A stretch of DNA of 64,000 nt, taken from positions 3,154 through 67,153 of the forward strand of contig CANRAL010000001.1 in NCBI GenBank assembly GCA_947628585.1, in the 5' to 3' direction. Position numbers and translations under genes: made by a program. Below are positions 3,039 to 60,124 of the stretch, one piece after another. Source of the stretch: an uncultured Bacilli bacterium. Lineage in GTDB: Bacteria; Bacillota_I; Bacilli_A; RF39; UBA660. Under the pieces are notes generated by a model that was not told where the DNA came from, ran no database searches, and saw only the letters and a program-made list of their open reading frames with translations. Each line of letters opens with the position of its first letter. Positions within the stretch are counted from its first letter, which is position 1.

Positions 3039-4421
3039 ATGTACGATGTTGTAATAATAGGCGCTGGCCCAGCAGGTTTATTCGCGGCCTATGAATTAAT
3101 TGAAAAAAATAGTAAATTAAAGATATTATTATTAGATAAAGGAAAGCTAGCTCAAAAAAGAGTTTGTCCTATAAATAAATCGAAAGATGGGTTATGTCAT
3201 AATTGTCAGCCATGTCAAATTTTATCTGGCTTTGGGGGCGCAGGAACATTTTCCGACGGTAAGTTAAATTTTATTCCAAAACTAGGTAAATCAAATTTAT
3301 TTAAGTATATGGATCAAACGGATGCTTATCATTTAATTGATGAAACGGAAGAAATATTTAATAAGTTTGGAATGACCGCGGAAAGTTATCCTAAAAATAT
3401 GGATGAAGCAAAAGCTATTGGCGAAAAAATTGCTAGAGTAGGAGCAAGCTTACTTATAATAAAACAAAAACATTTAGGTAGTGATATGTTACCCATATAT
3501 ATTGAAAAATTTACTAATTATTTAATTGATAAAGGGGTAGATATAAAAGAAAATATTGAGGTAAGTGATATTCAAAAAGTAAAATCTAATTATGAAGTTA
3601 TAAGTAAAAATGCTATTTTTAAAACTAAATATGTAATTGTAGCTCCGGGAAGAACTGGAGCAAAATGGGTTCAAGAGCTCGCCGACAAATATAAAATCAA
3701 TTATACTTCGCAAAGTATCGAAATAGGGGTTAGAGTTGAAGTAAGAAAAGAAATTTTAGATCCTATAACTAATATTATATATGATCCGACTATATTTATT
3801 AAGACTGATACCTATAATGATGAAATAAGAACTTTTTGTACTAATCCTGGAGGATATGTTAGTAAAGAAAATTATAATGGCTATATTTGTGTAAATGGGC
3901 ATTCCTTAAAAAATAAGAAATCTAATAATTCCAATTTTGCTTTTATTTCTAAAGTTAATTTGACAGAACCCGTGACTAATACGCGGGAATATGGCGAATG
4001 CATTGCTAAAATTGCCAATACTTTAGGCGCGGGAAAACCAATTATTCAAACATTAAGAGATTTAAGAATGGGTCGCAGAAGTAATATGGAACGAATAAAA
4101 AAAGGTTTTATAGAACCAACATTGAAAGATGTAGTTGCAGGAGATTTAGCCTTAGTATTACCTCATCGAATAATAAAAAATATTATTGAAGGAATCGATA
4201 TATTAAATAAAATTATTCCAGGGGTAAGCAACGGAGAAACCTTATTATATGGTCCTGAAATAAAATTTTTTAGTAATGAAATAGATACAAATAACAATAT
4301 GAAATTAAATGATGAAGATATTTACTTTATTGGCGATGGAGCTGGTAAAGCTGGGAATATAGTTACGGCGGCAGCAACAGGGTTAATCGCGGCAAGAGAT
4401 ATTTTGGAAAGAGAAAAGTAA
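3039..4421 (+). CDS. FAD-dependent oxidoreductase (COG2509-type uncharacterized FAD dehydrogenase)
   Basis: N-terminal Rossmann motif MYDVVIIGAGPAGLFAA and C-terminal GDGAGKAGNIVTAAATG. Confidence 0.75.
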   Translation: MYDVVIIGAGPAGLFAAYELIEKNSKLKILLLDKGKLAQKRVCPINKSKDGLCHNCQPCQILSGFGGAGTFSDGKLNFIPKLGKSNLFKYMDQTDAYHLIDETEEIFNKFGMTAESYPKNMDEAKAIGEKIARVGASLLIIKQKHLGSDMLPIYIEKFTNYLIDKGVDIKENIEVSDIQKVKSNYEVISKNAIFKTKYVIVAPGRTGAKWVQELADKYKINYTSQSIEIGVRVEVRKEILDPITNIIYDPTIFIKTDTYNDEIRTFCTNPGGYVSKENYNGYICVNGHSLKNKKSNNSNFAFISKVNLTEPVTNTREYGECIAKIANTLGAGKPIIQTLRDLRMGRRSNMERIKKGFIEPTLKDVVAGDLALVLPHRIIKNIIEGIDILNKIIPGVSNGETLLYGPEIKFFSNEIDTNNNMKLNDEDIYFIGDGAGKAGNIVTAAATGLIAARDILEREK

Positions 4422-6444: not shown

Positions 6445-8205
6445 ATGTTAAAATTATTTAAAAACTTAAAGAAAGAAGATTGGATATATGCTGGTATTAG
6501 TTTTCTTTTAATAGCTTTTCAAGTATGGTTAGAATTAAAAATGCCAGATTATATGTCTGAAATTACCCAATTAGTTCAAACTGAAGGTAGTAAAATGGCT
6601 GATATTTTAATTAATGGTGGTTATATGCTTTTATGTGCCTTGGCTTCATTAATTTGTGCCGTTATAACTGGTTATTTGATTGCTAATGTATCGGCTAGAT
6701 TTTCGAAAAATATTCGAAAAAAATTATTTAATAAAACTTTAGAATTATCTATGGGAGAAATAAAAGATTTTTCCCCCAGTAGTTTAATTACGCGAACTAC
6801 CAATGATATAACCCAAATTCAAATGTTTATTGCAATGGGGCTTCAAATGATGGTTAAGGCTCCTCTTACAGCAATTTGGGCGGTAACAAAAATATTAAAT
6901 AAAAGTTGGCAATGGAGTACTTTAACCGCGGGGGCTGTAGTTATTTTACTTTCGACGGTGGCAATTATTTTAGTTATTGTTTTACCTCGTTTTAAAATAG
7001 TTCAAAAATTAATTGATCGAGTTAACAAAATTACGCGAGAAAATTTAATGGGTATTCGGGTTATTCGGGCTTTTAATGCCGAAGAATATCAAGAAAATAA
7101 ATTTGAGGAAGTAAATAAAAATTTAACTAATACGCAATTATTTAATCAAAAAGCATTTGCTATTATGCAACCAATTATGTATTTAGTAATGTATTTTTTA
7201 ACTTTAGCTATTTATATTATTGGTATATATTTGATAAAAAATAGTTTAATGGCAAATAAAATAGCTTTATTTGGGGATATGGTAGTTTATTCTTCATATG
7301 CTATGCAAGTAATTATGTCATTTTTAATGCTAGCTATGATTTTTATGATTTTGCCAAGAGCCAATGTTTCGGCGAATAGAATTAATGAAGTATTAGATAA
7401 ATTGGTAAGTATTAAAAACGGAACTTTAAAAGAAACAAAAACAGGAGAAGTTGGAACAGTGGAATTTAAAAATGTAAGTTTTAAATATCCGGATGCCGAA
7501 GATTATGTTTTGGAGGATATATCTTTTAAAGTTAAACAAGGAGAAACGGTGGCATTTATTGGTTCTACTGGTAGTGGTAAATCTACTTTAATTAATTTAA
7601 TTCCGCGATTCTACGATGTTACTAAAGGAGAAATCCTAGTTGATGGTATTAACATTAAAGAATATGATTTAAAATATTTATATAATAAACTAGGATATGT
7701 TTCCCAAAAAGCGGTTATGTTTAATGATACTGTAATAGGAAATGTTACATTTGGGGATAATGGACAAAAAAAGAGTAATGAATTAGTTAATAAAGCTCTT
7801 AAAGTGGCTCAAGCCGAAGAATTTGTTTCCAAAATGGAAAACAAAGAATATTCTAATATATCGCAAGGAGGAACAAATATATCGGGAGGTCAAAAACAAA
7901 GACTATCAATTGCCCGGGCTATTGCTCGAGAACCAGAAATATATATATTTGATGATTCTTTTTCTGCTTTAGATTATAAAACGGATAGTAAAGTTCGCCA
8001 TGAATTAAAAAAATATACGAAGAATGCTACAAGTTTAATTGTTGCTCAAAGAATAGGAACAATTATGAATGCAGATAAAATTATTGTTTTAGATAAAGGA
8101 AAATGCGTAGGAATTGGTAGCCATAAAGAACTTTTAAATAGTTGTGATGTATATAAAGAAATTGCTTTATCCCAATTATCAAAGGAGGAATTAGAAAATG
8201 CCTAG
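6445..8205 (+). CDS. ABC exporter, fused permease/ATPase (heterodimer subunit A)
   Basis: Six-TM N-terminal half, then Walker A GSTGSGKST, signature ISGGQKQRLSIARA and Walker B IYIFDD. Confidence 0.9.
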   Translation: MLKLFKNLKKEDWIYAGISFLLIAFQVWLELKMPDYMSEITQLVQTEGSKMADILINGGYMLLCALASLICAVITGYLIANVSARFSKNIRKKLFNKTLELSMGEIKDFSPSSLITRTTNDITQIQMFIAMGLQMMVKAPLTAIWAVTKILNKSWQWSTLTAGAVVILLSTVAIILVIVLPRFKIVQKLIDRVNKITRENLMGIRVIRAFNAEEYQENKFEEVNKNLTNTQLFNQKAFAIMQPIMYLVMYFLTLAIYIIGIYLIKNSLMANKIALFGDMVVYSSYAMQVIMSFLMLAMIFMILPRANVSANRINEVLDKLVSIKNGTLKETKTGEVGTVEFKNVSFKYPDAEDYVLEDISFKVKQGETVAFIGSTGSGKSTLINLIPRFYDVTKGEILVDGINIKEYDLKYLYNKLGYVSQKAVMFNDTVIGNVTFGDNGQKKSNELVNKALKVAQAEEFVSKMENKEYSNISQGGTNISGGQKQRLSIARAIAREPEIYIFDDSFSALDYKTDSKVRHELKKYTKNATSLIVAQRIGTIMNADKIIVLDKGKCVGIGSHKELLNSCDVYKEIALSQLSKEELENA

Positions 8206-10625: not shown

Positions 10626-10839
10626 TAGTGACAAATTAAATAAAATGTGTTAAAATAATTCTTAATCTTTGTTGAGGTGTGATACATAATGAAGAAATTT
10701 AGATTAAGTGCGAATATTTAATTTATTATATTATGATAAATCTTTATTTATATAATAAAAAAATTGAGATATTTTTAATAATATAATAAAATATAATAGG
10801 AAGCTTTTGAGTTTTAATGTTTTAAGGAGTGGTTTAATT

Positions 10840-13800
10840 ATGAACTCAAGATTAAAGAAGATAGTATTGTTTTTAATTACTAGTTTAATATTACCTTTTA
10901 GTGTTTTTGCTAAAGAAGATATAGAGTTAAGTGTTGATAAAAAAGATTTAAAAATTGGTGATGAGATAGTAGTAACTGCTAAAATGGCGGAAGATTTAGA
11001 AAGTTATGCTCTTATTGCCACTTTGAAGTATGATGAAAATGTTTTTCAAAGAATAGATGAATCTGATTTTGCGGTAGCTATTAATTCTAGTATTAATTAT
11101 AATAAAGCCAATAATAAATTTGGAATAATTAATCGAACTGGTCAAGCCCAAGATGGCATTCTTTTTCGAGTTAATTTAAAAGTAAAAGATAAAGCTAATG
11201 TTGGAGATACTAATATTGCTTTAACTAATATTTCTTCATCTGATGGTAGTGAAAAAAAAGAATATACAGCAAATACCCTTAAAGTATTTGTATCGCGGGA
11301 TATGGAAAAAAATGAAGAAATTTCTGGCAATAAGGAAAATAATATTAGTCCGGATACAGAAGAAATTATTAAAGTATTTACTAACAAACCAATTATAATT
11401 ATTTCTACAGTTTTAACTATAGGTTTATTAGGTTATATTTTATTTTATGGATTTAAAAAGAATAAGAATAAGAAAATATTAATTAGTTTAATTGTTGCTG
11501 ATGTTGCTTTGGGTGTTATAACCGGATCTATGTTTATTAATAATTATAATAAAAAAGATGTTAATGATGATGGTATTAAAAACTATGATGATGCGGAAGA
11601 AATTATCAAATATTTAATTGATATTAAAGGAATAGATGAAGAAGAAAAAATAGAAGAAAATGAAAAAGAGGATAATACAAATACCAATAGTACTTCAACT
11701 AATACTAATAGTAATAAAAAGCCTTCTTCTAATTCCAAACCAACTAAACCTAAAAATGATTATGATACAAATAATGATGGCAAAGTAGATGTTGATGATG
11801 TAGGGAATGTTGTAGAAGATGTAACTAAAAATACGAGTGTTAAATTACAAGAAGTAAATCCAAATAATGAATATTATATTGATAAAGGAACAATTGCACT
11901 TAATTTTAAGGCGGAAATTAATCCTCAAGATAGTAAAATAACTAAAGTTAAAATTGGTGATGAATTTTATGATGTTACTTTGGATAGTGATATTTATAGT
12001 GTAACTATAGATGTAAATGAAAGTGGAGAAAAAGATTTTGTAATTAGTGAAGTAATTTTAGATAATAATCAAAGTGTTAAAACTAATTTAAAAATTAGTA
12101 GGGAAATATTAAAAGAAATACCTTATGTTAATAACTTTAATTTGGAAGATGAAAAGAAAACATTAAGTTTTGATTTAGTGGATAATGATGATGCTTTTAA
12201 AGAAGGAACAGTTACTATTTATGATGGTACCGAAAGCATTAAAAGTGCTAAATTAAGTAAAAATAATATATTGAAAGATTTACCTATAGAAGAAGATAAG
12301 TCTTATGATGTTGAAATAATTGGTAGTTATGATTTAGATAGTAATAAAAATGAAGGTAAAAATTCTTATAATGAAGAAACAATGTTTAGTCATTCTTTTA
12401 CGATAGGTGGCGATTATAATTTTACTTTAACCGATGTAGTAATAACTGATGAGTTGCAACCGGGAGAAATTCCTGTTATATCGTTTAAGAGTACTAATAG
12501 TCGAAAAGCAAATATAAAATTAGCTAATTTTACTAATGACAAAAATGCTGCGAAATCTTATCAACTTATAGCCGTAAATGATAGTAATTATGAAGTTCCT
12601 ATAGTTGGGGCTGATATTACTCCTGGAGAACATACAATTACTTTAGACAGTGTTCAATTAGATAATTTGAAGTTTTTGGAAAATTCTAAGGATTATAATG
12701 TTAATGTTTTAAATTATACAGTTTTAAAAAGTGCTCCTAAAGCGGAAGATTTAACTCTTATAGATAAACGTGAGGAAAAAATTATTGAAGCGACATTTAA
12801 ATTAAATGATTCTAATGAAGCAGCAAATCATCTTATTATTTCTTTAACTGATTCATCTTATAAATTAGCTAGTAAAGTGGAATTTACTAAAGAAGAAATA
12901 GAGGCTTTAAGAGATAAAGAATTTAAAGTGTCTTTACCTTATGATAATAGCACTGATGGTTGTTATCGGGTAGTTGTTTATGCTGATTATGATTTATCGG
13001 ATAAATATCATTATACTCTTAAAAATATTGGAGAAAATTCTATTTTGAGTCCTAAAGATATTTATATTCAAGATATGTATTTAGTTAATGCTAAAAATGA
13101 AAAGATTGAAAGTCCTTATGTTTCTAAAGATAGTAATACTATTCAAGTAGCTTTTGAAATAGTAATTGGGGATGAAATAAAAAAATATAAATCTTATGGT
13201 GGCATATCTTATGTAACTATTAATGGTTTAAATTGTCCTATTAGTACTATAAAAACACCTGATAAAAATAATGGTGTGTATTTAATCAAAGCTACTGTTA
13301 AAGTTCCTAAAGAATCTGGTATTTTGGAATTAACAGCTAATCGGGTTCAACTTTCTAATAATTCATATTATCATATTTGGAGTGATTATTATGCTGTTGG
13401 AGAAAAATCTATTAAAATAGAAGTATTAAAAGATAAACCAAAAATAGAAAATTTAATAGTTACAGAAGAAGACTATGATAAAGGAAAAGTAACATTTGAT
13501 TTTGATATTGTATTAGATAATAATGCAACTTTAAATGATAATAGTTTTGATTTTGGTAGTCTTACTTTAGATGGTAAAGAAGGAAATCCAAGTGTTGTTA
13601 ATTCAACAGGGCATAATAAAGTAACTTTTGAAAATGTTTCAAAAGATAAAAAATTAGATTTAATATTTAAAGCTAAATTTGATTTAGATACTAATACTTT
13701 AGATACCGATAAAAATGAATTAGAGGAAGAAATATATAAAGTTAATTATGGTCTATATAATAAAAAATCTTATCAAGATGTAACTATTAATAAAGGATCT

Positions 13801-16800
13801 TCTAATAAAAAGTATTATGAAAAAAATGAAGATATAGAACTTACTTTTGATATAACTGGAAATTTTGAAAATTTAGGAATGAATCCTAAAAAAGTAATTA
13901 TTGATGATAAAGAATATGAATTAATAAAGAAAGATGATAGTTATAGTGTTAAAATTTTAGGATTTCATAGTTTTGGTAGAAAAGAAATAACTATTACTGA
14001 TGTAATTTTTGATTATGGTCAAAAAGTAACCTTAAAGGATAAATATTCATTAAATGTGGAAGTTTTAAAGGATGTTATTAAATTTAATAACTTAGAATAT
14101 GAAGTTTTAGAGAATTCTATTAAAGTTATTTTTAGAAAAGTTGATCCTGATAATTCTTTAGTAGGTAAAGCTAAAGTAATTATTAGTGATGAACAAAATA
14201 ATATTATTTATGATGGTAATTATCAAGATGAAATAAGTTTCAAACATGATGCTAATGTCTTAAGATATTTTGTTAAAGTAATTGGTTCATATGATCGAGA
14301 CATTAATGTAACGAAAAATAGTGAAAATTACTATGGTGATGTTACGTTACTTAATGAAATAATTTCGTTTGAAAGAAATAATATTGAATTAAAGAATATT
14401 ATTGATATTAATCTTTATAAACAAATAAATGATGGAACATATGATGAAATTATTAAAGTTGATGAAGTATCTTTAAAAGAAATAAATGATAATAAATCTG
14501 CTTATTTTGCTGAAGTAGTAATGGAAAATCTTCCAAGTATAAGAACTAGAATTAAGGAAGCAATTGAAAAAGATAAACATTTAATTTTAATACTTGATTA
14601 TAATTATGTAACTAAGGAAGGAAAAATAAAGACTAATAATGTTCAAATTGACTTTGGCGAAATAAAAGAGAATGGAATAGCTAAAAATGAATTTCATCCT
14701 GAAATAGCCATTCAAAAATTAATTGAAGAATTAAATGATAATAAAGATATAACCTTAATGCAAAATTATGATTTTTCGATAATTGATAATGAAGATTTAG
14801 TTTATGTAGAAAATTATAAAGGTACTTTAGAAGGAAATGACTATACATTTAAAAATTTAAGTAAACCATTATTTGATACTTTAACTGGTAAAGTAAAGAA
14901 TTTAAACATTGTTAATGTTGCTATGGAAAAAACTGGCCATGGAGCTTTAGCTAATAAAGCCGAAAACGCGGAAGTAACAAGTGTTTATATTGACAATGTG
15001 ACTAGAAATGCTGGCGATGATAGTGGTCAAAATGGGGGATTAATTGGTTCAACTGTAAATACTAAAGTAGAAGCATGTCGGGTAACAAATGTTACTATCA
15101 ATGCTGGTTACTATGCTCAACAAAATGGTTTATTAATTGGTACTACTAGTGGTAGTGTTGATAAATCAATAATAAAAAATTCTTATGCGGAAGGAAGACT
15201 TTTAGGTGGTTATAATTATACAAGTGGTTTTGTGGGTAATTGTAAATCAACGACTGTTATAAATAATTTTGTAAAAGTAACTGCCAGTGGTCAATCTGGA
15301 CCTGTTGCCGCTTTTGGGGATGCTTATGGGGACCAAAATAGTGTTTATGAAAACAATATAAGTATTGCCTCAGGTACAACAACTAATATGATTGGTAGTG
15401 CTAAAACTATTAATAATAATTATTTCTACATTGATAATGAAGCTACTAGTAAAGATGGTATTACGGTTATAGATAAAAATGATATTAATGATGAACTATT
15501 TATAACTAAAGCTAAATTTGATCCAAATATTTGGTATATTAATAATATTTCTTTTGATAATTTACCAATATTCCATAAAGAAAAGAAAACAGTATTAAAT
15601 GATACTTCTAATGAAAATTATCGGGAAGAAAATGAAACTTTATATCAAAATTTAATTAAATTAATGCCATTTTATGATAGTAATAAAATAATAACTATTG
15701 CTCAAAATGTTACAGATATAAATTTAAATACTAAGATTATTAATCATATTATTCCAATAGATAAAGAAGGAAAATTAGTAACTTATTTAACTAATTCTGA
15801 TATTCGAAAAATAGCTAAAATTAGAGTTGTATTCACGGATAAAACTAAAATAGATTATGATGTTATATATGATAAATCCTATGATATGGTAGCATCTTAT
15901 CGAATTATTAGTTTAGGTATTGATTATAATTATAATAATTATGTTATTGATGAAAATTCTCAAGTGGTAAATAATTTAACTAATTATTTACAAAAAATAA
16001 ATTATGGTACGGATTTGGATATTTTAACAACAAATAGTGATAGTCGGATATATAGAGATTTTTATAATGAAGTAACAAGTAAAGAATTAAAAGAATTTGT
16101 TTTAAAATATTTAGCTAATAGTGAATATACTAATACAACAAATGATAAGACAATTAATGATTATTTGGAAAGAGAAGTAAAGAAAAATCAAAAATTAGAA
16201 AAAGCCTTATATACTTATAATTATTTTAGAAGATTCTACGATGTAGAAGTTGGAAAAATGAAATTATATGATATTATGATGTTTAATATGGAAGGCTTTA
16301 ATAGTGATTTAACTACAAGTAAAATTGTTGATTTATTCTTTAGTGATAAAAGTGGAGCTAATTTTAATACTAATTTAACTAGTTCTAAATATTCTTCAGT
16401 TTTAGGATCATATACTAAAATAAATAATATAGTTGATTTTCTAGAATATGTAGTTACGGAATTTAGTAATGAAACTGATATGGCTAATTGGGTAAGAGAA
16501 CAATTTAAAGGAATTTTAGTGGAACTTCCAATTGAAGGACATCCTGAAATTTTATATACATTATGGGATCATTTCCGGAATCCTGACAAAAATTATCCTA
16601 ATGGAGTATATGGACATGATGCTCATGAATTTATATTACCAATTTTAACTTTACCAGAAAATTCAGCTTATATTATTTCGGCTCCAGTAGAATTTATTAT
16701 TGGTGCGCAAAGAACATATATTAGTGATCCTTTTGATCCCCAACAAGTTGCTGATTTTAAAGCTAAAATGGCAACATATACAACAAGATTACAATCTTAC

Positions 16801-18267
16801 TTTACAACTGCTTATGGTATTTTGGAAAATAAAGATTTATTTAATAATATGCATTTATTTATTCTTGATAAACGTAATACTAAAAATATAGATGGAACTG
16901 GAGTTTATAATAATCCATATACAACTACGGAACCATTCCATAAGAATTTTGATGAAATTTTAGGACTTTGGCCAGCAGCTGCCGGGAATAATGCCGCCGC
17001 ATGGGGTTACTACATTGAAATGCAAGTTGCCGGAGTATTAGATAGTAACTTAACTACTGATGGTTCATTAGATATTGGTCATGTTACATTTAAGACGCTT
17101 ACCCATGAATCTGCCCATAATTTAGATGATCGTTTATTCTTTAAGAATAATGGTCAAAGAGGGGGTGGAGAAGATTATGCCGATGCCTTCTTAATGCAAG
17201 CATTTGAAAAATTTGGTATTGTTATGAATTTATCAATTAATTTTGATTTAGAAAAGTTAAATGAAAATAATCAAGCTGTTGGTTCTAATTTAACGCCAGA
17301 ACGAATAAATACGGAAGCTAAAATATCTGATTTTTACAATAAAGCTTTCCAAACAATTTATACAATTGATTATTTAGAAGCACAAGCATTCTTACAGTTA
17401 CCAAAAGAAGCTCAAGAAAAGTTAGCTATTCAAATTTCTTATCCAAATGCGGAAAAAGAAGTAGAATTTAAAGATTCCGATGGAAAGGTATATATAGAAT
17501 ATGTTGATGAAAATGGGCAAAAACAACCTTTAGTAAGTAGAAAATATAAAGATGATCCTTATGCATTAAGCGCTGCTTATTCTTTAACTCAATATACAAA
17601 ATTAGATCAAGTTGAAGATTTTGATTTCAGTAAATTAAAAACCATTGATGATTTAATTGATAATAAGATAATGTTATATCCTGGTAAAGAAGGAGTATCG
17701 ACTTTAGGACCTGGACATTATGGTGGCGAAGGTTATAATGTTGTTCATTGGTACCAACCACATAATGATTACGGTTTCCCTGATTCTTATTCTTCTAAGT
17801 GGATTAGTTATGAAATGTTAGGTTATGCTGGATATACCAATGGTTTTGTAGAATATGCTAGTAATATTCATACTACCAAAAGAACATTCTACACTTCCTT
17901 ATCGGCAACTATAAATAAAAATGGTACTTTAGCTTTAAGTGAAATTAATTATAAAAGTGATGCTACAGCTTTAAAAATTATTACTAATAATCAATATGAA
18001 AATTTTGATGATTATAAGAAAGCTCGTTTTAGAGAAGTAGCTGCAAATTTAGATCACTTAAATAAAATAATAAATGCTAAAGAATATGTTCAAAAATTCT
18101 ATAATGCTTTAATGGAAGATGTTAATGATAAAAATTTAACTAAGAGTAGTGATGTTCGTTATCAAATTTATAGTACATTAAAAAATTATACTAATGATTT
18201 TAGAACTAATGAAATTATAATGGATAGTTGGCAACAAAATGTTAGTGATTTAAATGTTACTAAATAA
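10840..18267 (+). CDS. giant surface zinc metalloprotease, peptidase M26 (ZmpA/B/C, IgA1-protease-like) family
   Basis: ORF 10807..18267. ATG 10840 follows AAGGAG and gives signal peptide MNSRLKKIVLFLITSLILPFSVFA. GTLEGNDYTFKNLSKPLF...NLNIVNV matches the M26_N-like region. HESAH at 17104..17118 with Glu 22 residues after the first His (GGGEDYAD). Many beta-rich repeats lie between. Confidence 0.8.
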   Translation: MNSRLKKIVLFLITSLILPFSVFAKEDIELSVDKKDLKIGDEIVVTAKMAEDLESYALIATLKYDENVFQRIDESDFAVAINSSINYNKANNKFGIINRTGQAQDGILFRVNLKVKDKANVGDTNIALTNISSSDGSEKKEYTANTLKVFVSRDMEKNEEISGNKENNISPDTEEIIKVFTNKPIIIISTVLTIGLLGYILFYGFKKNKNKKILISLIVADVALGVITGSMFINNYNKKDVNDDGIKNYDDAEEIIKYLIDIKGIDEEEKIEENEKEDNTNTNSTSTNTNSNKKPSSNSKPTKPKNDYDTNNDGKVDVDDVGNVVEDVTKNTSVKLQEVNPNNEYYIDKGTIALNFKAEINPQDSKITKVKIGDEFYDVTLDSDIYSVTIDVNESGEKDFVISEVILDNNQSVKTNLKISREILKEIPYVNNFNLEDEKKTLSFDLVDNDDAFKEGTVTIYDGTESIKSAKLSKNNILKDLPIEEDKSYDVEIIGSYDLDSNKNEGKNSYNEETMFSHSFTIGGDYNFTLTDVVITDELQPGEIPVISFKSTNSRKANIKLANFTNDKNAAKSYQLIAVNDSNYEVPIVGADITPGEHTITLDSVQLDNLKFLENSKDYNVNVLNYTVLKSAPKAEDLTLIDKREEKIIEATFKLNDSNEAANHLIISLTDSSYKLASKVEFTKEEIEALRDKEFKVSLPYDNSTDGCYRVVVYADYDLSDKYHYTLKNIGENSILSPKDIYIQDMYLVNAKNEKIESPYVSKDSNTIQVAFEIVIGDEIKKYKSYGGISYVTINGLNCPISTIKTPDKNNGVYLIKATVKVPKESGILELTANRVQLSNNSYYHIWSDYYAVGEKSIKIEVLKDKPKIENLIVTEEDYDKGKVTFDFDIVLDNNATLNDNSFDFGSLTLDGKEGNPSVVNSTGHNKVTFENVSKDKKLDLIFKAKFDLDTNTLDTDKNELEEEIYKVNYGLYNKKSYQDVTINKGSSNKKYYEKNEDIELTFDITGNFENLGMNPKKVIIDDKEYELIKKDDSYSVKILGFHSFGRKEITITDVIFDYGQKVTLKDKYSLNVEVLKDVIKFNNLEYEVLENSIKVIFRKVDPDNSLVGKAKVIISDEQNNIIYDGNYQDEISFKHDANVLRYFVKVIGSYDRDINVTKNSENYYGDVTLLNEIISFERNNIELKNIIDINLYKQINDGTYDEIIKVDEVSLKEINDNKSAYFAEVVMENLPSIRTRIKEAIEKDKHLILILDYNYVTKEGKIKTNNVQIDFGEIKENGIAKNEFHPEIAIQKLIEELNDNKDITLMQNYDFSIIDNEDLVYVENYKGTLEGNDYTFKNLSKPLFDTLTGKVKNLNIVNVAMEKTGHGALANKAENAEVTSVYIDNVTRNAGDDSGQNGGLIGSTVNTKVEACRVTNVTINAGYYAQQNGLLIGTTSGSVDKSIIKNSYAEGRLLGGYNYTSGFVGNCKSTTVINNFVKVTASGQSGPVAAFGDAYGDQNSVYENNISIASGTTTNMIGSAKTINNNYFYIDNEATSKDGITVIDKNDINDELFITKAKFDPNIWYINNISFDNLPIFHKEKKTVLNDTSNENYREENETLYQNLIKLMPFYDSNKIITIAQNVTDINLNTKIINHIIPIDKEGKLVTYLTNSDIRKIAKIRVVFTDKTKIDYDVIYDKSYDMVASYRIISLGIDYNYNNYVIDENSQVVNNLTNYLQKINYGTDLDILTTNSDSRIYRDFYNEVTSKELKEFVLKYLANSEYTNTTNDKTINDYLEREVKKNQKLEKALYTYNYFRRFYDVEVGKMKLYDIMMFNMEGFNSDLTTSKIVDLFFSDKSGANFNTNLTSSKYSSVLGSYTKINNIVDFLEYVVTEFSNETDMANWVREQFKGILVELPIEGHPEILYTLWDHFRNPDKNYPNGVYGHDAHEFILPILTLPENSAYIISAPVEFIIGAQRTYISDPFDPQQVADFKAKMATYTTRLQSYFTTAYGILENKDLFNNMHLFILDKRNTKNIDGTGVYNNPYTTTEPFHKNFDEILGLWPAAAGNNAAAWGYYIEMQVAGVLDSNLTTDGSLDIGHVTFKTLTHESAHNLDDRLFFKNNGQRGGGEDYADAFLMQAFEKFGIVMNLSINFDLEKLNENNQAVGSNLTPERINTEAKISDFYNKAFQTIYTIDYLEAQAFLQLPKEAQEKLAIQISYPNAEKEVEFKDSDGKVYIEYVDENGQKQPLVSRKYKDDPYALSAAYSLTQYTKLDQVEDFDFSKLKTIDDLIDNKIMLYPGKEGVSTLGPGHYGGEGYNVVHWYQPHNDYGFPDSYSSKWISYEMLGYAGYTNGFVEYASNIHTTKRTFYTSLSATINKNGTLALSEINYKSDATALKIITNNQYENFDDYKKARFREVAANLDHLNKIINAKEYVQKFYNALMEDVNDKNLTKSSDVRYQIYSTLKNYTNDFRTNEIIMDSWQQNVSDLNVTK

Positions 18268-30826: not shown

Positions 30827-33130
30827 ATGAAAAAATTAAAATTATGGTTACTATTAATTTTATTTATACCAATAACCGTTTTAGCGGATAGCATTGAAAA
30901 TTTTTACTATAATGTAACTATTTTAGAAAATGGGGATTTAGAGGTTGAAGAATATTTTAATTTAGAGGGATACTTTAATGGTATGGAACGCGAAATTAAT
31001 TTTTTCAACTCAGCTCCAGTTTTTGATGCTAATTTAGATAGTTATGGTGGTAGTAGTATCCATAATGGTAAAGATATTATTTTAGAAGAAATTAAAGGTG
31101 TTGAAATAAATAATGAATTTGATTTTCAAAATGTCATTGGTGATGAATTTGTTTACAATTCCGATGCTGTAAGTGGTGACTATGGTTATTATACTTATTC
31201 TGCAAATTTTTTAACTGGTAAAAAATTTAAGATTTTTTTGCCAAGTCGTAAAAATAAAGCTTTTTATTTAAAATATAGATTAGTTGATATGGCTATATTG
31301 CATAATGATATTGGGGAATTAGGATGGAATATTTTTAATAATAATTTTACTGAAGATATTCGTAATTTAAAAGTTATAATTAACATTCCTAATAATAAAA
31401 ATATGATTAAGATATGGGGACATGGTCCTTTAAATGGAGAAACTAAAATTTTAGATGTTGATAAAGCTGAGTTTACTATTAATAACTTAGATGCTAATAC
31501 AGCAATTGATGTAAGATTAGCTTTTGATAAAGAGGTAATTTTTAATAGCTCTAAAAAAACTGGAGTAGATGCTTTAACAAAAATAATTAATTATGAAACT
31601 GATTTGGCTTTAAAAGCTAATGCGGAAAGAGAAAGAATAAAGACTCAAAAAATTGCTGAAATAGAGGAAAGTTTTCAAAAATTAGATGATTTTCCAAGTA
31701 GATATTCTTATAATAATTTGGAAGATAAAATATCCAATTTAGAATATTTGGATTTGCAACAAACATATATGAATAGACTTTTAACATATCAAGATAAGGT
31801 TGATGACTTTGAATATGATATGTTTACTTCCTATATTAAAGAAGGGACTTTTTTCTCTTATGAACAAGCTTGTGATATAGTAAACTTAGTATTTAATGAA
31901 AATTTAAAAAATGAAATGCAAAAAGAATTAGAAGTATATAAAGAAGAAGTTTATCAACACGAATATTTTAAAGAAAAAGTTCTAATTGCAATTGCAATTG
32001 CTTTTATAATTATTTCTATTATAGCTAGACAAAAAAGTAAAATTTCTGGTCGTTTTATAAAAAATATTAGTCCTAAATATAATCGAAATATACCTAATAA
32101 TTTAAGCCCAGTAGAAGCAGGAATTTTAATAGATAGATGTATAGATGGTAAAGAAATTTCGGCAACATTACTGGATTTAATTAAAAGAAAAATTATTAAA
32201 TTAACTAAGGATAAAAAAGGTTATTTATTATCTTTAAATGTTGAAAAAGAAACTTTAACTTTTGAAGATAAGAAAATTGTTCAAATGATTTTTAAGGGTA
32301 GAAAAAGTGTTTCTTTAAAGAAAATAAGAAGAATAGAATATAATTATTTTGAATCTTGGAAAAAACATGAAATAAATATGTTAGTTGATAAAAAGTTAAT
32401 TACGAAAAAAAGTAAAAAGATAAAAAGGGATATTAGTATTTTATGGTTAATATTAGGTATATTTTTTTGCATAAGCGTTTGGGGTATACTTATAGGAATA
32501 GCTTTTTTAACTTATTATGGTTATAAACGATATCATGAAAATATATATTTATATTTTATTTTAGTTGCATCGGTTATATTAATATTTGTTTCTTTAATAT
32601 TTAATCATGTACATATTTCTTTAATATTTTCTATTATTGCAGTAATAGTTATTAAAATGAATTTGAGTAGAATGCCTCAACGGTTAGAAATAGAATTAAC
32701 AGATAAAGGTAAAGAAGAAGTAAATAAGTTATACGCTTTAAGAAATTTTTTGAATGATTTTTCTATATTAGATGAAAAAGAAATAAAAGAAATAGTATTA
32801 TGGGAAGATTATTTAATTTATGCTACTCTTTTTGGTATTAGTAAAAAAGTAATTAAAAATATGAAATTAAAAATAGATAATCCCGAAATATTAAATGAAA
32901 ATATATTATTTGATGTAGCAATGTTAAATTTTGTTAGTACGACGGCAAATAGTATTTCCAATGTAACTAATCGTTATGCTATTCCGAGTGTTCATGTTCC
33001 TTTAAGTGGTGGATCTTCATCGTCATCATCTTCCTCTTATTCCTCAGGTTCTGGTTCTGGCGGTGGTTTTTCAGGAGGTTCATCTGGTGGTGGCTCTTTT
33101 GGAGGCGGCTCTGGAGGCGGACGTTTCTAA
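30827..33130 (+). CDS. DUF2207-type membrane protein with Gly/Ser-rich C-terminal tail
   Basis: Signal peptide, large extracellular domain, several TM helices and the terminal GGSSSSSSSSYSSGSGSGGGFSGGSSGGGSFGGGSGGGRF typical of DUF2207. Confidence 0.7.
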   Translation: MKKLKLWLLLILFIPITVLADSIENFYYNVTILENGDLEVEEYFNLEGYFNGMEREINFFNSAPVFDANLDSYGGSSIHNGKDIILEEIKGVEINNEFDFQNVIGDEFVYNSDAVSGDYGYYTYSANFLTGKKFKIFLPSRKNKAFYLKYRLVDMAILHNDIGELGWNIFNNNFTEDIRNLKVIINIPNNKNMIKIWGHGPLNGETKILDVDKAEFTINNLDANTAIDVRLAFDKEVIFNSSKKTGVDALTKIINYETDLALKANAERERIKTQKIAEIEESFQKLDDFPSRYSYNNLEDKISNLEYLDLQQTYMNRLLTYQDKVDDFEYDMFTSYIKEGTFFSYEQACDIVNLVFNENLKNEMQKELEVYKEEVYQHEYFKEKVLIAIAIAFIIISIIARQKSKISGRFIKNISPKYNRNIPNNLSPVEAGILIDRCIDGKEISATLLDLIKRKIIKLTKDKKGYLLSLNVEKETLTFEDKKIVQMIFKGRKSVSLKKIRRIEYNYFESWKKHEINMLVDKKLITKKSKKIKRDISILWLILGIFFCISVWGILIGIAFLTYYGYKRYHENIYLYFILVASVILIFVSLIFNHVHISLIFSIIAVIVIKMNLSRMPQRLEIELTDKGKEEVNKLYALRNFLNDFSILDEKEIKEIVLWEDYLIYATLFGISKKVIKNMKLKIDNPEILNENILFDVAMLNFVSTTANSISNVTNRYAIPSVHVPLSGGSSSSSSSSYSSGSGSGGGFSGGSSGGGSFGGGSGGGRF

Positions 33131-53775: not shown

Positions 53776-53882
53776 TTGTCAAACTTTTGTAAAGTTTTAT
53801 TTTTTGCAAAGCAAACCATTGATATATATATATATAGTAAAATGGGCTTTAGATAGAGTATTTGCGAAAGGATATGATATAT

Positions 53883-55775
53883 ATGAAAGGTAATAAAAAG
53901 TCTTTAATTTTATTAATTGTTGGCATATTTGTAATATTAATAGTTGTAATAGGAGCAACCTATGCATATTTTCAAAGTGTAAATGGTAATACAACAATTT
54001 CTAATATAAATACGACAACTGGAACAGTAGATAGTTTATCTTTTATTGGTGGAGATAATATAACTCTTGAAGTAAAACCAGATGAATTTAAATTAGGTGA
54101 TAGTAATCAAGAAGGAACAACAAATGTAAGTGCTACCTTAATAGCTAATAATACAACAAATGAAACAGAAGATTATAAATATAGTATATATTTAGAGATA
54201 ATAGAAAATAATTTGGAATATTCTTCATATAAAGATGAAGGAAAAGAAGACCCAATAGTATTTTTAAAAGAATATGATAAAACATTAGGAAATAATGTCG
54301 ATTATAATGGGTTAACTTTAGGGTATGAGGCGATACCTGAGTTATTTTTAACAGTAAAAGGACCAGATGGTTATGATGGAAATATAGAAGGATTAAATAA
54401 AGCAACATTAAAAGAAATAGATGATAGTTATGATATAACGGAGTTAAGAGAAGGAATATATCCTATAGTAGAAGATTATGTAATAAAAGTAAATAAAGAT
54501 AATCATGATATTGAAAAAGAAAATACAAAAACGGATAAATGGGAAATAACAATAACATTTAAGAACTTAGAAACAAATCAAGAATTAAATACAGGAAAAA
54601 GTTTTAAAGGAAGAATAAGAATTCAAGAAAAGAAAATAGCCAATGATTTAATGGATGTATGTAATGAAGGGGAAGAACTAGCTGAATGTATAAAAAAGTT
54701 ACATGATGAAAGTGAATATGGAGCAAGTAATCTAATCTATCATGATGGAAAAGCAGATTATGAAGGAGAAACAAATGCAAATTTAGAAGCCAATGATAAA
54801 AGTTATAGATATACAGGTTCATTCGAAAAAGTAAATAATTATATATGCTTAGGAACTGACTGTAATAATAAAGATAACTTATTTAGAATAATCGGAACAT
54901 TTGGAAGTGATGGGATAAAAGTAGTAAAAGCGGATTATGCAAATAAAGAATTATTAGGAGCTGGAACAACAAGTACCTTAGATTTTGAAGCGACTGATCC
55001 TGAAACTTATGGTTCATATTCTACAGTAAATGCTTATCAAAAATCTCAAGGTAGTAATGAAGAACAAGATGCATTTACTCATAGATATAAAGGCTTATTA
55101 GACCATGTAGATAGATATAGATGGCAAGAAAACGGAACAGAAGCAACAGTAGCAAATTGGGAAACATCATTACTTAATAAAATTCATTTAAATAAAAAAT
55201 ACATAAGTACAATAGAAGAAAAATATCGAGAATTAATACTGGAACATGAATGGATATATGGAAATAAGAATGCAACATGGGATAATATAGCAATAGCTAA
55301 TAATGTCAAAACAGTATATAATAATGAATTAGGAACAGATGCTCAAGATGATAAAAAAACCGATCCAGAATATATAGGCTTATTATATGTAAGTGATTAT
55401 TTATATGGCGCAGCACCAAAAAATTGGAATAAACAACCATTCACCGGAATATTGAATTATAATAAGGATACAGGAAAAACTGATAAAGATAAAAACCCAG
55501 CAGGAAGCTTCGCAGAAAAGACAATAGATAATGATTATCGTTCGGCAACAGATAGTAACTGGTTGTATATGGGTCTATGGGAATGGTTAATAATTCAAAG
55601 ATCCGATTCTCCTGTCTTTGCGTTCTATGTGGCTGCTACCGGTCTTGTCTACAACGACTTCTTTGTCGGCGCGTTCACGCTTGTGGTCCGCCCAACATTC
55701 TATATTAACAATGATGTTCAATTAGGTGGTGGAACAGGTACAATTAATGATCCATATACTTTAGTTGTTAATTAA
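53883..55775 (+). CDS. secreted protein with TasA/SipW-class-like signal peptide and C-terminal W.WL...VRP domain carrying an A-depleted patch
   Basis: ORF 53862..55775. ATG 53883 lies 10 nt after AAAGGA and gives MKGNKKSLILLIVGIFVILIVVIGATYAYFQS. C-terminus WEWLIIQRSDS...VRPTFYI...GTGTINDPYTL. Confidence 0.75.
   Translation: MKGNKKSLILLIVGIFVILIVVIGATYAYFQSVNGNTTISNINTTTGTVDSLSFIGGDNITLEVKPDEFKLGDSNQEGTTNVSATLIANNTTNETEDYKYSIYLEIIENNLEYSSYKDEGKEDPIVFLKEYDKTLGNNVDYNGLTLGYEAIPELFLTVKGPDGYDGNIEGLNKATLKEIDDSYDITELREGIYPIVEDYVIKVNKDNHDIEKENTKTDKWEITITFKNLETNQELNTGKSFKGRIRIQEKKIANDLMDVCNEGEELAECIKKLHDESEYGASNLIYHDGKADYEGETNANLEANDKSYRYTGSFEKVNNYICLGTDCNNKDNLFRIIGTFGSDGIKVVKADYANKELLGAGTTSTLDFEATDPETYGSYSTVNAYQKSQGSNEEQDAFTHRYKGLLDHVDRYRWQENGTEATVANWETSLLNKIHLNKKYISTIEEKYRELILEHEWIYGNKNATWDNIAIANNVKTVYNNELGTDAQDDKKTDPEYIGLLYVSDYLYGAAPKNWNKQPFTGILNYNKDTGKTDKDKNPAGSFAEKTIDNDYRSATDSNWLYMGLWEWLIIQRSDSPVFAFYVAATGLVYNDFFVGAFTLVVRPTFYINNDVQLGGGTGTINDPYTLVVN
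55602..55700 (+). other. adenine-depleted, GC3-rich patch (candidate DGR variable region)
   Basis: In 33 codons I count 20 ending in G/C, and none of the first 30 ends in A. Only 8 A in 88 nt (55606..55693). There is a sharp switch from the flanking AT-rich codon usage. Confidence 0.45.
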
Positions 55776-55853: not shown

Positions 55854-55884
55854 GATGCTACACCAATTGACTAGCATCTTTTTT
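55854..55884 (+). terminator. rho-independent terminator
   Basis: gatgcta / tagcatc stem followed by tttttt. Preceded by the tight hairpin gttacc/ggtaac at 55823..55839. Confidence 0.7.
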
Positions 55885-56206
55885 CCATATTAAATGTAAA
55901 ATAATAACAATTAATTAGATTATAATTACTAAGATGAGTATAAAACCCCCTCGTAAAAATTACTCATAAATATGGTAAGGTGCTACTAACAAGTAACAAA
56001 GACATTATTATAAGTGAAAAATAAGCAAAATCAAGGCTTTCGACAAAACTAGAAATTATTTTTGAAATAAAAAAATGGAGCCGCTTGTTGCGACTCCTAA
56101 AGAATAAAAAGGGGTTGACTAGTGTGATACTAGCACCAATTCGCCTTCTTTAAGTGAATTGGTGCTTATTATCCTAACCGATTTGTTCTACTTTGTCAAC
56201 ATTTTT

Positions 56207-58478: not shown

Positions 58479-59048
58479 ATGAATGATGAAAAAAATAATC
58501 GGAAAGTAATTGTTGGTGTATTAATAATAATAGTGGCAATTGTATTTTTAGGTATCTCTTTTGCGTATTATATTATGGAGTTAAGTGGAACGGCTAATGT
58601 TGGTGTAGCTAAATGGAATGTTTTAGTAAATGGTTCAGCTTCTAAGACTTTTACTCCTAAGTTTACTTTAGATTCTAATGCAAATGTTGTTGATAATAAA
58701 TTGGCTCCAGCATCTTCAATGACGGGCAATATTGAAATAAATTTAGAAGGTACAGAAGTAGCAGTAGAAGTTTTAGCAAGTGTAGATACTAGCAAAATAA
58801 AAAATATAATTGGTGAATCTAAAATTTCGGTAGATGTTCAAATTGATGGAGTTGAAGATAACATTATTCGGTTACCTGAAGATGGTGCTTTTAATAATTC
58901 AAATGGTAAGAAAAATGTTGAAATAAAAATTACTTGGGATGATGATAATGGAAGTCATAATGAACAAGATACTATAATTGGTCAAACTATTGAAAATTTA
59001 GAAATACCTGTTACTTTAACAATTAAACAATATATTGAAAAGCAATAG
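58479..59048 (+). CDS. TasA/camelysin-like small secreted protein (SipW-class-like signal)
   Basis: VIVGVLIIIVAIVFLGISFAYY signal-anchor. VAKWNV and KLAPASSMTGNIEINLEG resemble the TasA L.PGD....F.N.G region. Confidence 0.6.
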   Translation: MNDEKNNRKVIVGVLIIIVAIVFLGISFAYYIMELSGTANVGVAKWNVLVNGSASKTFTPKFTLDSNANVVDNKLAPASSMTGNIEINLEGTEVAVEVLASVDTSKIKNIIGESKISVDVQIDGVEDNIIRLPEDGAFNNSNGKKNVEIKITWDDDNGSHNEQDTIIGQTIENLEIPVTLTIKQYIEKQ

Positions 59049-59058
59049 AGGTTTTTGA

Positions 59059-59565
59059 ATGAAATTAAAAAACAATACTTTAATTTTGTTTGTTTTATCT
59101 TTAATTCTATTAACTTTTATTATGCAAAGTTTTGCTATTTATGCTAGTAACTATGATAATTTAAACTTAGTATCAGTTGCAAAATGGCAATTTAATGAAG
59201 ATAACCCTTATGAAAAAATAACAATTAATTTAGATAATTCAGCCGATTTAACTAATTTAAGTGGCGGAAAAATAGCTCCTGGGAGTAAGGGAAATTTTAC
59301 AATTAAAGTATCTAATAAAACTAGTGATGTTGCTATTAATTATAAAATAGATATATTAGAATCTAATGTTCCTATGAATTTTCATATTACTAATTATGAA
59401 GAATTAAAAGAAGGATTATTAAATTATCATGAAGAAAAAGATCTTACTTTTTATTGGGAATGGGATTATTCTTCTTCTTTAGAAATGGATGAAGATGATT
59501 CTTTATACATGGGAAAAGATTTAATATTGAATTTAGCCATAACTGGTAGTCAAAAAATAAATTAA
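59059..59565 (+). CDS. TasA/camelysin-like small secreted protein (paralog)
   Basis: LILFVLSLILLTFIMQSFAIYAS signal. VAKWQF and KIAPGSKGNFTIKVSN parallel the preceding gene. Confidence 0.6.
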   Translation: MKLKNNTLILFVLSLILLTFIMQSFAIYASNYDNLNLVSVAKWQFNEDNPYEKITINLDNSADLTNLSGGKIAPGSKGNFTIKVSNKTSDVAINYKIDILESNVPMNFHITNYEELKEGLLNYHEEKDLTFYWEWDYSSSLEMDEDDSLYMGKDLILNLAITGSQKIN

Positions 59566-59584
59566 AAGAAGGAGGTTTAGATTA

Positions 59585-60124
59585 ATGTCAAAATTTTTAA
59601 ATATTTTAAAAAAGTATCGATATACGTTTTTAATTTTAATTATTTTGTTTATTTTTCTATCCTCTTTATTGGCAACTTATGCTCATTATGAAAGTAAAGT
59701 ATCTAAAGATGTTACGGCGAGTGTAGCATCTTTAATCTGTGAAATTGATAGTAAAGAACTTAATACTAATTTAGCTCGTGGAACCAAATTAGTTCATTAT
59801 TTTAATGTTAATAATTATAATGATTTAAAAACTACGGAAGTAGCATACGATTATTATATTTATATTTTAGATGAATATGAGGAAGTTATTTCGGATGCTA
59901 AATTATATAAATATGAACAAGTAGAATCGGATAATTTAATAACTAAGGAAAATCCTAATACATATAAAAAGTTATCTATGGAAGAAGTAGGGTATTTAAA
60001 TAGTTTTTATGGTGGTGAATTTTTTTTGGACAAAGGAACTCAAAAATTTAAATTGGAAATAGATAAAGTTAATACTAATAATATAAAAATTAAAGTAATA
60101 GGAGTTCAAAAAAATTTAAGTTAG
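59585..60124 (+). CDS. small secreted protein with the same signal type
   Basis: AAGGAGG RBS. FLILIILFIFLSSLLATYAHYES signal, then a beta-rich mature part. Confidence 0.55.
   Translation: MSKFLNILKKYRYTFLILIILFIFLSSLLATYAHYESKVSKDVTASVASLICEIDSKELNTNLARGTKLVHYFNVNNYNDLKTTEVAYDYYIYILDEYEEVISDAKLYKYEQVESDNLITKENPNTYKKLSMEEVGYLNSFYGGEFFLDKGTQKFKLEIDKVNTNNIKIKVIGVQKNLS

Follow-up and report, generated by a model that had tools for sequence, protein, structure and literature searches.

Adenine-poor patch in a surface-protein gene of an uncultured gut Bacilli bacterium: a variable region written by a diversity-generating retroelement

A sharply bounded, adenine-poor patch lies near the 3′ end of a gene for a 630-residue, membrane-anchored protein (53883..55775, + strand) in a 64,000-nt stretch of DNA from an uncultured Bacilli bacterium (assembly GCA_947628585.1, contig CANRAL010000001.1, positions 3,154 to 67,153; hereafter the window). 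This patch is the variable region (VR) of a target gene, written by a diversity-generating retroelement (DGR), a conclusion in which we place high confidence. The observations behind it are the homology of the patch to a template repeat (TR) found in related assemblies, differences between the two that are specific to adenines, variability across the protein family that is restricted to the same sites, and the fold of the VR-bearing domain, together with the location of the cassette, which is not on the contig.

Composition and extent of the patch

The patch as first flagged, 55602-55700, is 53% GC and 11% A, in a window that is 25% GC and 39% A as a whole. Its 99 nt hold 53 G+C and 11 A, where the window means per 99 nt are 25.0 ± 6.0 and 39.3 ± 6.9, respectively. 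A preliminary description of this DNA had counted 8 A in the first 88 nt, 20 of 33 codons ending in G or C, and no A-ending codon among the first 30; all of these counts were reproduced exactly (15 of the 20 codons end in C and five in G). It had also argued that the amino acids cannot explain the codon choice, and simulation agrees. With the amino acids of the patch held fixed and codon usage taken from the other long open reading frames (ORFs) of the window, 4.5 ± 1.9 G/C-ending codons are expected, and none of 200,000 runs reached 20, the highest value being 15.

A comparable GC-rich, A-poor composition is found at only one other place in the 64 kb, 33022-33128, which is the Ser/Gly-rich C-terminal tail (SSSSSSSSYSSGSGSGGGFSGG...) of a 767-residue multi-pass membrane protein (ORF 30827-33130). 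It was considered as a second VR-like patch and rejected, as its sequence is unrelated to the VR and its composition is due to its Gly/Ser-rich amino acid content.

The sharp bounds in the preliminary description stand, although the segment homologous to a template is narrower than the one flagged, covering 55608-55694. When the intergenic region of the cassette-bearing contig L001 (see below) was compared with the window by blastn, it matched at 55608-55693 only, and the end of the compositional block coincides with the end of TR homology. As aligned to the two known templates, the VR (55608..55694, + strand) is 87 nt long with 55% GC and 8 A, and encodes residues 576-604.

A related cassette and its templates

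A protein 90% identical to the window protein (P0002) is encoded on the ENA contig L001, where a TR directly follows its gene and the order is target-TR-orf124-avd-RT, the last being a reverse transcriptase (RT) gene. The VR of this contig (3994-4077) and its template (TR1, 4251-4334) differ at 20 positions, of which 17 are template adenines; 17 of the 22 TR adenines are changed. The cassette RT matches RVT_1 at 6e-15 and contains the motifs IGNMTSQ and YMDDF, (I/L)GxxxSQ being the DGR-type form of RT motif 4. An Avd-like ORF of 125 residues gives weak but specific matches to bAvd (5.7e-4) and to NF033474 DivGenRetAVD (1.7e-6), both under the curated cut-offs. A second copy of the cassette, with an RT 93% identical to the first, lies on contig L016 and supplies a template variant, TR2 (154-237). 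P0002 and a further homologue, P0005, are associated with an identical RT, and their VR differences all fall at A codons; the two proteins are mosaic elsewhere too, so this pair is supportive rather than a clean isogenic comparison.

TR1 and TR2 were taken from related assemblies, not demonstrably from the window's own genome. When the window VR is compared with TR2, an extra codon having been removed, 16 of 23 template A sites are changed compared with two of 61 others (Fisher p = 4.8e-10). Against TR1 the changes affect 15 of 22 A sites and three of 62 non-A sites. One of the two non-A differences from TR2 agrees with TR1, and the other is the last base. A blastn search of the window with the TR finds the VR at E = 8e-13. 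The adenine-specific differences from the template support the earlier suggestion that the patch is a DGR variable region, but not the accompanying idea that its few A-containing codons are the diversified sites. The diversified sites are instead the 23 positions with A in the template, 16 of which are now T, G or C in the window. At the changed sites the window codons read TTT, TAT, GCT, GCT-ACC, CTT, TAC, GAC, TTC, GCG, TTC and CTT, and the C-ending codons of the VR are NNC/NNT codons derived from AAC/AAT.

The sites that do not carry a template adenine are also informative. In the window VR they are 97% identical to TR2 (26 of 27 third positions), compared with 86% and 58% in the two flanks (p = 4e-4). 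The same figure, 97% identity to TR2 at non-A sites, well above that of the flanks (p = 7e-5), is reached in L010, a remote copy from another metagenome-assembled genome (MAG) in which the gene shares only about 75% identity with the cassette-linked one. Such agreement in both the window copy and L010 indicates template-driven rewriting of remote copies.

Variability across homologues

There are 91 homologues of the target protein in public data, of which 29 were aligned. This alignment shows hardly any variation on either side of the patch. Within the patch, the residues of a fixed scaffold (P.V.AF.V.A.G.V...YVG....VVRP) are interspersed with positions open to almost any residue, and these vary even between proteins of 80-90% identity. 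The VR occupies the 3′ end of the ORF (residues 576-604 of 630), and entropy follows the adenine codons of the template. Where the template has AAY, entropy is about 3 bits or more and almost any residue is found; ACN codons give mostly T/P/A/S and TAC codons mostly Y/F/C/S, while codons without adenine are conserved, with G, R and P invariant. At the A-containing codons, 340 of 375 cells hold a residue reachable by A substitution. Among the nine closest homologues, the VR is the most variable 30-column stretch.

Fold of the VR-bearing domain

The VR lies in the last part of a C-terminal globular domain, residues 260-630 (54660..55772, + strand), for which AlphaFold gave a model with a predicted local distance difference test (pLDDT) value of 96.4 and a predicted TM score (pTM) of 0.94; a model of the C-terminal core, residues 445-630, has pLDDT 90. 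The sole significant PDB neighbour of the domain in Foldseek is 9qa6, an IgA peptidase of Thomasclavelia ramosa (E = 6e-8), which is again the only one for the core (probability 0.99). The best matches among the predicted viral structures of BFVD are DUF6273 proteins of gut phages. The N-terminal domain (NTD) of 9qa6 is annotated as DUF6273 (PMC12402451), and the NTD of the IgA peptidase is described as an enlarged domain of the C-type-lectin-like kind (CTLD), related to Legionella Lcl (PMC12237041). DUF6273 is considered C-type-lectin-like (PMC10743442), and its use as a DGR target domain, in which the VR is C-terminal, has been documented (PMC11792537).

The model and its structural neighbours thus predict an enlarged CTLD of the DUF6273 type. 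As modelled, the relationship of the target to DUF6273 is structural only, the Pfam family DUF6273 (PF19789) having no match to the window protein and matching just one of the 29 aligned family members (P0037, at 8e-5). Foldseek with both models retrieved neither Mtd nor TvpA nor any other solved DGR variable protein, which makes the assignment to the C-type lectins an indirect one, and canonical C-type lectins appear among the structural matches at E about 8-10 only. The C-type-lectin-like fold proposed as a check in the preliminary description is predicted here as a DUF6273-type enlarged domain, by way of 9qa6 and not by a direct match to Mtd or TvpA.

Proposed origin of the patch

In the mechanism that we propose, a TR of about 84-87 nt would be transcribed, and a DGR-type RT would copy the transcript into cDNA with misincorporation opposite template adenines; this cDNA would then replace exactly the homologous segment of the target gene. 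Randomised adenines would leave NNC/NNT at the diversified sites, and the scaffold codons GCG/GTG/GTC/GGC/CGC/CCN would stay as they are. An adenine-poor block rich in G/C at third codon positions would arise in a 25%-GC genome in this way because the TR is G/C-rich and has its adenines almost only in AAY/ACN/TAC, which are randomised; the edges of the block would be sharp because the cDNA replacement spans exactly the template-homologous segment. About 13 residues are diversified; by analogy with other DGR targets, they would be placed on the ligand-binding face of the lectin-like domain.

No cassette adjoins the window gene; we infer that this copy was written in trans, recently, by a cassette elsewhere in the genome. 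A trans-acting cassette is plausible because of the dispersed copies that lack an RT, the TR2-like non-A sites of the window copy and L010, and a shared sample. Copies dispersed without a nearby RT are the rule in the target family, none of them having an RT within 10 kb, and one rabbit-gut MAG (uncultured Bacilli bacterium) has at least four paralogues scattered among housekeeping genes. L017 (NODE_602), from the window strain, was assembled from the same sample, ERZ27249530, as L001 (NODE_2711), the cassette contig. A scan for the VR/TR pattern found, among genome contigs, only the known Lapin MAG contig and two chance matches; among metagenome contigs it found one chance match (L015), and among viral contigs none. 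On this evidence we lean slightly towards the window copy being a currently serviced remote target.

Several observations weigh against that reading. The preliminary description had reported no TR or RT in the 64 kb, and this was confirmed: a search of the window for TR-like copies, with mismatches allowed only at template A, gave A-rich noise only, and searches of the window with all parts of the cassette, including RT, Avd and the remaining ORFs (tblastn/blastn), yielded nothing but the match of TR to VR. L013, a contig of the same strain that is 100% identical over 12.5 kb, has no RT in the 5.2 kb upstream of the window, and the roughly 8 kb downstream, covered by L017, hold ribosomal-protein and elongation-factor (EF) genes and no TR, RT or Avd. 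None of the close RT homologues is on a 74,677-nt contig. The VR is one codon longer than either known TR, and because of this extra codon the exact template of the window VR is unseen. The GC-rich hairpin found after the stop codon of cassette-linked genes is absent after the window gene, which also has a 3′ tail (‘type B’) unlike that of the cassette-linked genes, the G/C-rich VR end GTGGTCCGCCC being retained. Two other type-B copies, L007 and L008, have 12-21 non-adenine changes, mostly towards A/T, and look decayed. Coverage in ERZ27249530 is 37x for NODE_2711 and 17x for NODE_602, and with twice the coverage the cassette contig may be another strain's. An identical VR is present in the window and in L017, which are two assemblies of one strain; as a comparison of assemblies, this is a weak test of ongoing diversification.

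Some of these observations are also what one would see if the VR had been written by a DGR once and is now a frozen, slowly decaying footprint, its cognate cassette lost or the copy no longer recognised. We regard this as possible: the contig has no cassette, the same VR is present in two assemblies of the strain, the divergent 3′ tail comes without a cassette-type hairpin, and the sister type-B copies L007 and L008 have already accumulated their 12-21 non-adenine changes. However, only two of 61 non-A sites in the window VR differ from TR2, and 26 of 27 third positions are kept despite the G/C-ending codons concerned being used at only 4-10% each in this 25%-GC genome, which means that any loss of the cassette must be recent; moreover, a cassette is present in the same sample.

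A role for recombination has also been weighed, in which diversification took place in a cassette-linked paralogue and the VR was then moved here by homologous recombination or gene conversion, not by retrohoming. The gene is indeed mosaic relative to L001, assemblies break inside it, and L017 begins with a different, paralogue-like segment. We nevertheless find this improbable, since TR homology ends at both edges of the block, and recombination would seldom produce a tract with exactly those two ends. The cassette-type 3′ tail was not carried along, and L010 shows the same pattern in a gene of about 75% identity. A fragment from an unrelated higher-GC organism, or an artefact of amino acid content or chance, has the raw composition alone to recommend it, and is so improbable that it can be set aside: 4.5 G/C-ending codons are predicted and not 20, the patch matches a TR in equally AT-rich relatives with differences that are adenine-specific, and the scaffold is conserved across the family. 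The codon simulation, the TR match, the variability of the family and the Fisher test together refute both a higher-GC donor and a compositional artefact.

Writing in trans by a DGR could extend well beyond the window gene, and in these gut Bacilli, with their small genomes of 25% GC, a single compact cassette might keep rewriting at least 4-7 dispersed membrane-anchored DUF6273-type proteins, including copies without the cassette-type flank or hairpin. We consider this broader proposal unlikely as it stands. If true, it would imply rules of target recognition looser than in the Bordetella paradigm, and copies would drift in and out of targeting, with the window copy and L010 fresh and L007 and L008 decaying.

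Comparison with known systems and significance

The prototype DGR, that of Bordetella phage BPP-1 (mtd VR/TR/avd/brt), shares with the present system the adenine-specific transfer from TR to VR and the position of the VR at the 3′ end of the target, closing in a G/C-rich stretch. The related cassette resembles it in having an Avd-like four-helix protein and an RT with (I/L)GxxxSQ. Bordetella phages are among the distant matches of the cassette RT in tblastn; no sequenced phage RT exceeds 36% identity to it, and phage nd12 is among the best phage matches. The systems differ in that the order on L001 includes orf124, as given above, in that the window copy has no adjoining cassette, and in the DUF6273-type fold of the target, for which Foldseek gives no match to Mtd.

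Closer in structure are the DUF6273-type targets of gut phages (Faecalibacterium prophages Lelie, Roos and Pioen; the ‘tentaclins’ of nd4/nd12), whose VR-bearing domain is alike and has the VR at its C-terminal end (PMC11792537). The window target, in contrast, is a cellular, membrane-anchored protein of 630 residues encoded among housekeeping genes. Cellular DGRs (Legionella LdtA, Treponema TvpA, and those of cyanobacteria and the candidate phyla radiation (CPR), including the remote targets of DGRscan-remote) also have surface-exposed lectin-fold proteins as targets, and several paralogous targets dispersed away from the RT. They differ from the present case in that the host of the window gene is an uncultured low-GC gut Bacilli bacterium and in that its link to a cassette of the same genome is putative. 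The NTD of the T. ramosa IgA peptidase (9qa6) shares the enlarged CTLD/DUF6273 fold at 12-13% identity to the window domain; it is part of a protease with no known DGR association, whereas the window protein has no protease domain.

Remote DGR targets are an accepted category (PMC6602519, PMC8144416, PMC7517822). The window copy adds to a known kind of system, since both remote and DUF6273-type targets are already known (PMC6602519, PMC8144416, PMC11792537), and the window VR reveals no new mechanism. It does illustrate that, in an AT-rich genome, composition alone can reveal a DGR target even if its cassette is off the contig; such cassette-less targets are missed by design in catalogues drawn from fragmented assemblies (PMC8144416). 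It also draws attention to the hypervariable lectin-like surface proteins of uncultured gut Bacilli as an uncharacterised family, dispersed in several copies per genome. These proteins are candidates for roles in adhesion or in evasion of phage or host recognition. Fresh and decayed copies side by side provide a natural series on what makes a remote target competent.

Features of the target gene

The extent of the target gene follows from its ORF and from homologues, which start at the ATG at 53883. Its leader or promoter region (53819..53882, + strand) is 98% identical by blastn to L001:2210-2274, the sequence upstream of the cassette-linked paralogue, and synteny with L001 begins at 53819. 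The protein consists of an N-terminal signal-anchor, an uncharacterised N-terminal half and the C-terminal DUF6273-like lectin-type domain with the VR. In the family alignment (A2) the hydrophobic signal-anchor (53883..53978, + strand) ends in the family-invariant GATYAYF, with invariant columns G24, A25, T26, Y27, A28 and F30; it presumably resembles signal peptides of the TasA/camelysin type. Searches of Pfam and NCBIfam gave no family for the target protein, and a profile search against PDB sequences gave spurious matches only. The 90% cluster of the window protein has one member.

Within and around the VR, four details deserve mention. The best gapped alignment places the extra codon, missing from TR1 and TR2, at TTT 55662..55664 (+ strand) or equivalently at the neighbouring TTC, and in one further homologue, P0026, there is likewise an additional residue at this position. 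The G/C-rich 3′ end of the VR, GTGGTCCGCCC (55683..55693, + strand), is the same in TR1, TR2 and the freshest VRs; by analogy with the Bordetella phage DGR it may act as a boundary like the initiation of mutagenic homing (IMH) site. Two codons before the template homology, a TCC codon (55602..55604, + strand) aligns with TAC/TGC (Y/C) in close homologues (alignment A2 and the L001 sequence). It looks like adenine mutagenesis of TAC, yet lies beyond the reach of TR1 and TR2. Downstream of the VR, the type B tail (55695..55775, + strand) has ordinary AT-rich codons and only 58% identity to the tail found in the cassette-linked gene (‘type A’); it is followed, after the stop codon, by an ordinary terminator-like hairpin (GATGCTA...TAGCATC) and a T-run at 55854..55885 (+ strand), as judged from sequence and folds.

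Relative to L001 the gene is mosaic. The 540 nt of 54873-55412 are almost identical, with 0-2 differences in each 90 nt; the segment 55413-55592, which is the last 180 nt before the VR, has 13-25 differences per 90 nt, and the sequence after the VR is also divergent. The DGR does not explain this second variable segment, 55413-55592, which suggests recombination among paralogues. Same-strain contigs in two ENA assemblies (L013 and L017) end or begin inside the target gene, at about 54279 and about 55386, and the first ~90 nt of L017 (window 55413-55480) are a different, paralogue-like sequence with 11 mismatches. Like a repeat or a mosaic, the target gene breaks assemblies.

Other observations on the cassette and the window

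The GC-rich hairpin of the cassettes (GGCTTGTCTTCGTGCC-TTCAC-GGTACGAGGCAAGCC; L001 4163-4199, L016 64-100) lies after the stop codon of the target and before the TR, and is missing from every remote copy. This hairpin could serve as a cruciform for target recognition, or it could belong to the DGR RNA. The conserved 124-residue ORF between the TR and avd (L001 4484-4858, L016 391-765) has no family match; it travels with the cassette, its 90% cluster being found on at least 13 contigs, and may be an additional DGR accessory protein. Immediately 3′ of the cassette on L001 (6513-7675) is a truncated RT with the motifs QGSILSP and YADD, with a 152-nt direct repeat on each side (6513-6664 and 7524-7675, 98% identity). 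The QGSILSP motif is that of RTs of the group II intron type.

Viral searches (IMG/VR) returned no close relative of the cassette RT. Only one target homologue, a distant one of 32% identity that shares the ending ...VVRP.LYL..., is encoded on a predicted viral contig (L020 6001-7519; IMG/VR UViG_3300045988_181655); it lacks a GC-rich VR signature, and within 6 kb of it there is no RT.

Elsewhere in the window, a giant ORF at 10807-18267 encodes 2486 residues. An identical gene on L013 is recorded with a match to Peptidase_M26_C (IgA-protease-like), and a Pfam scan of the ORF itself gave no match. Together with the IgA-peptidase-like lectin domain of the target, the Peptidase_M26_C record hints at a mucosal lifestyle. 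Three small tandem ORFs (189, 168 and 179 residues) lie at 58479-60124; they have no family matches, and their signal-anchors end in SFAYY, SFAIYAS and ATYAHYES, resembling the invariant GATYAYFQ of the target. Judging by these motifs, they may share a secretion or processing class, perhaps TasA/camelysin-like, with the target protein.

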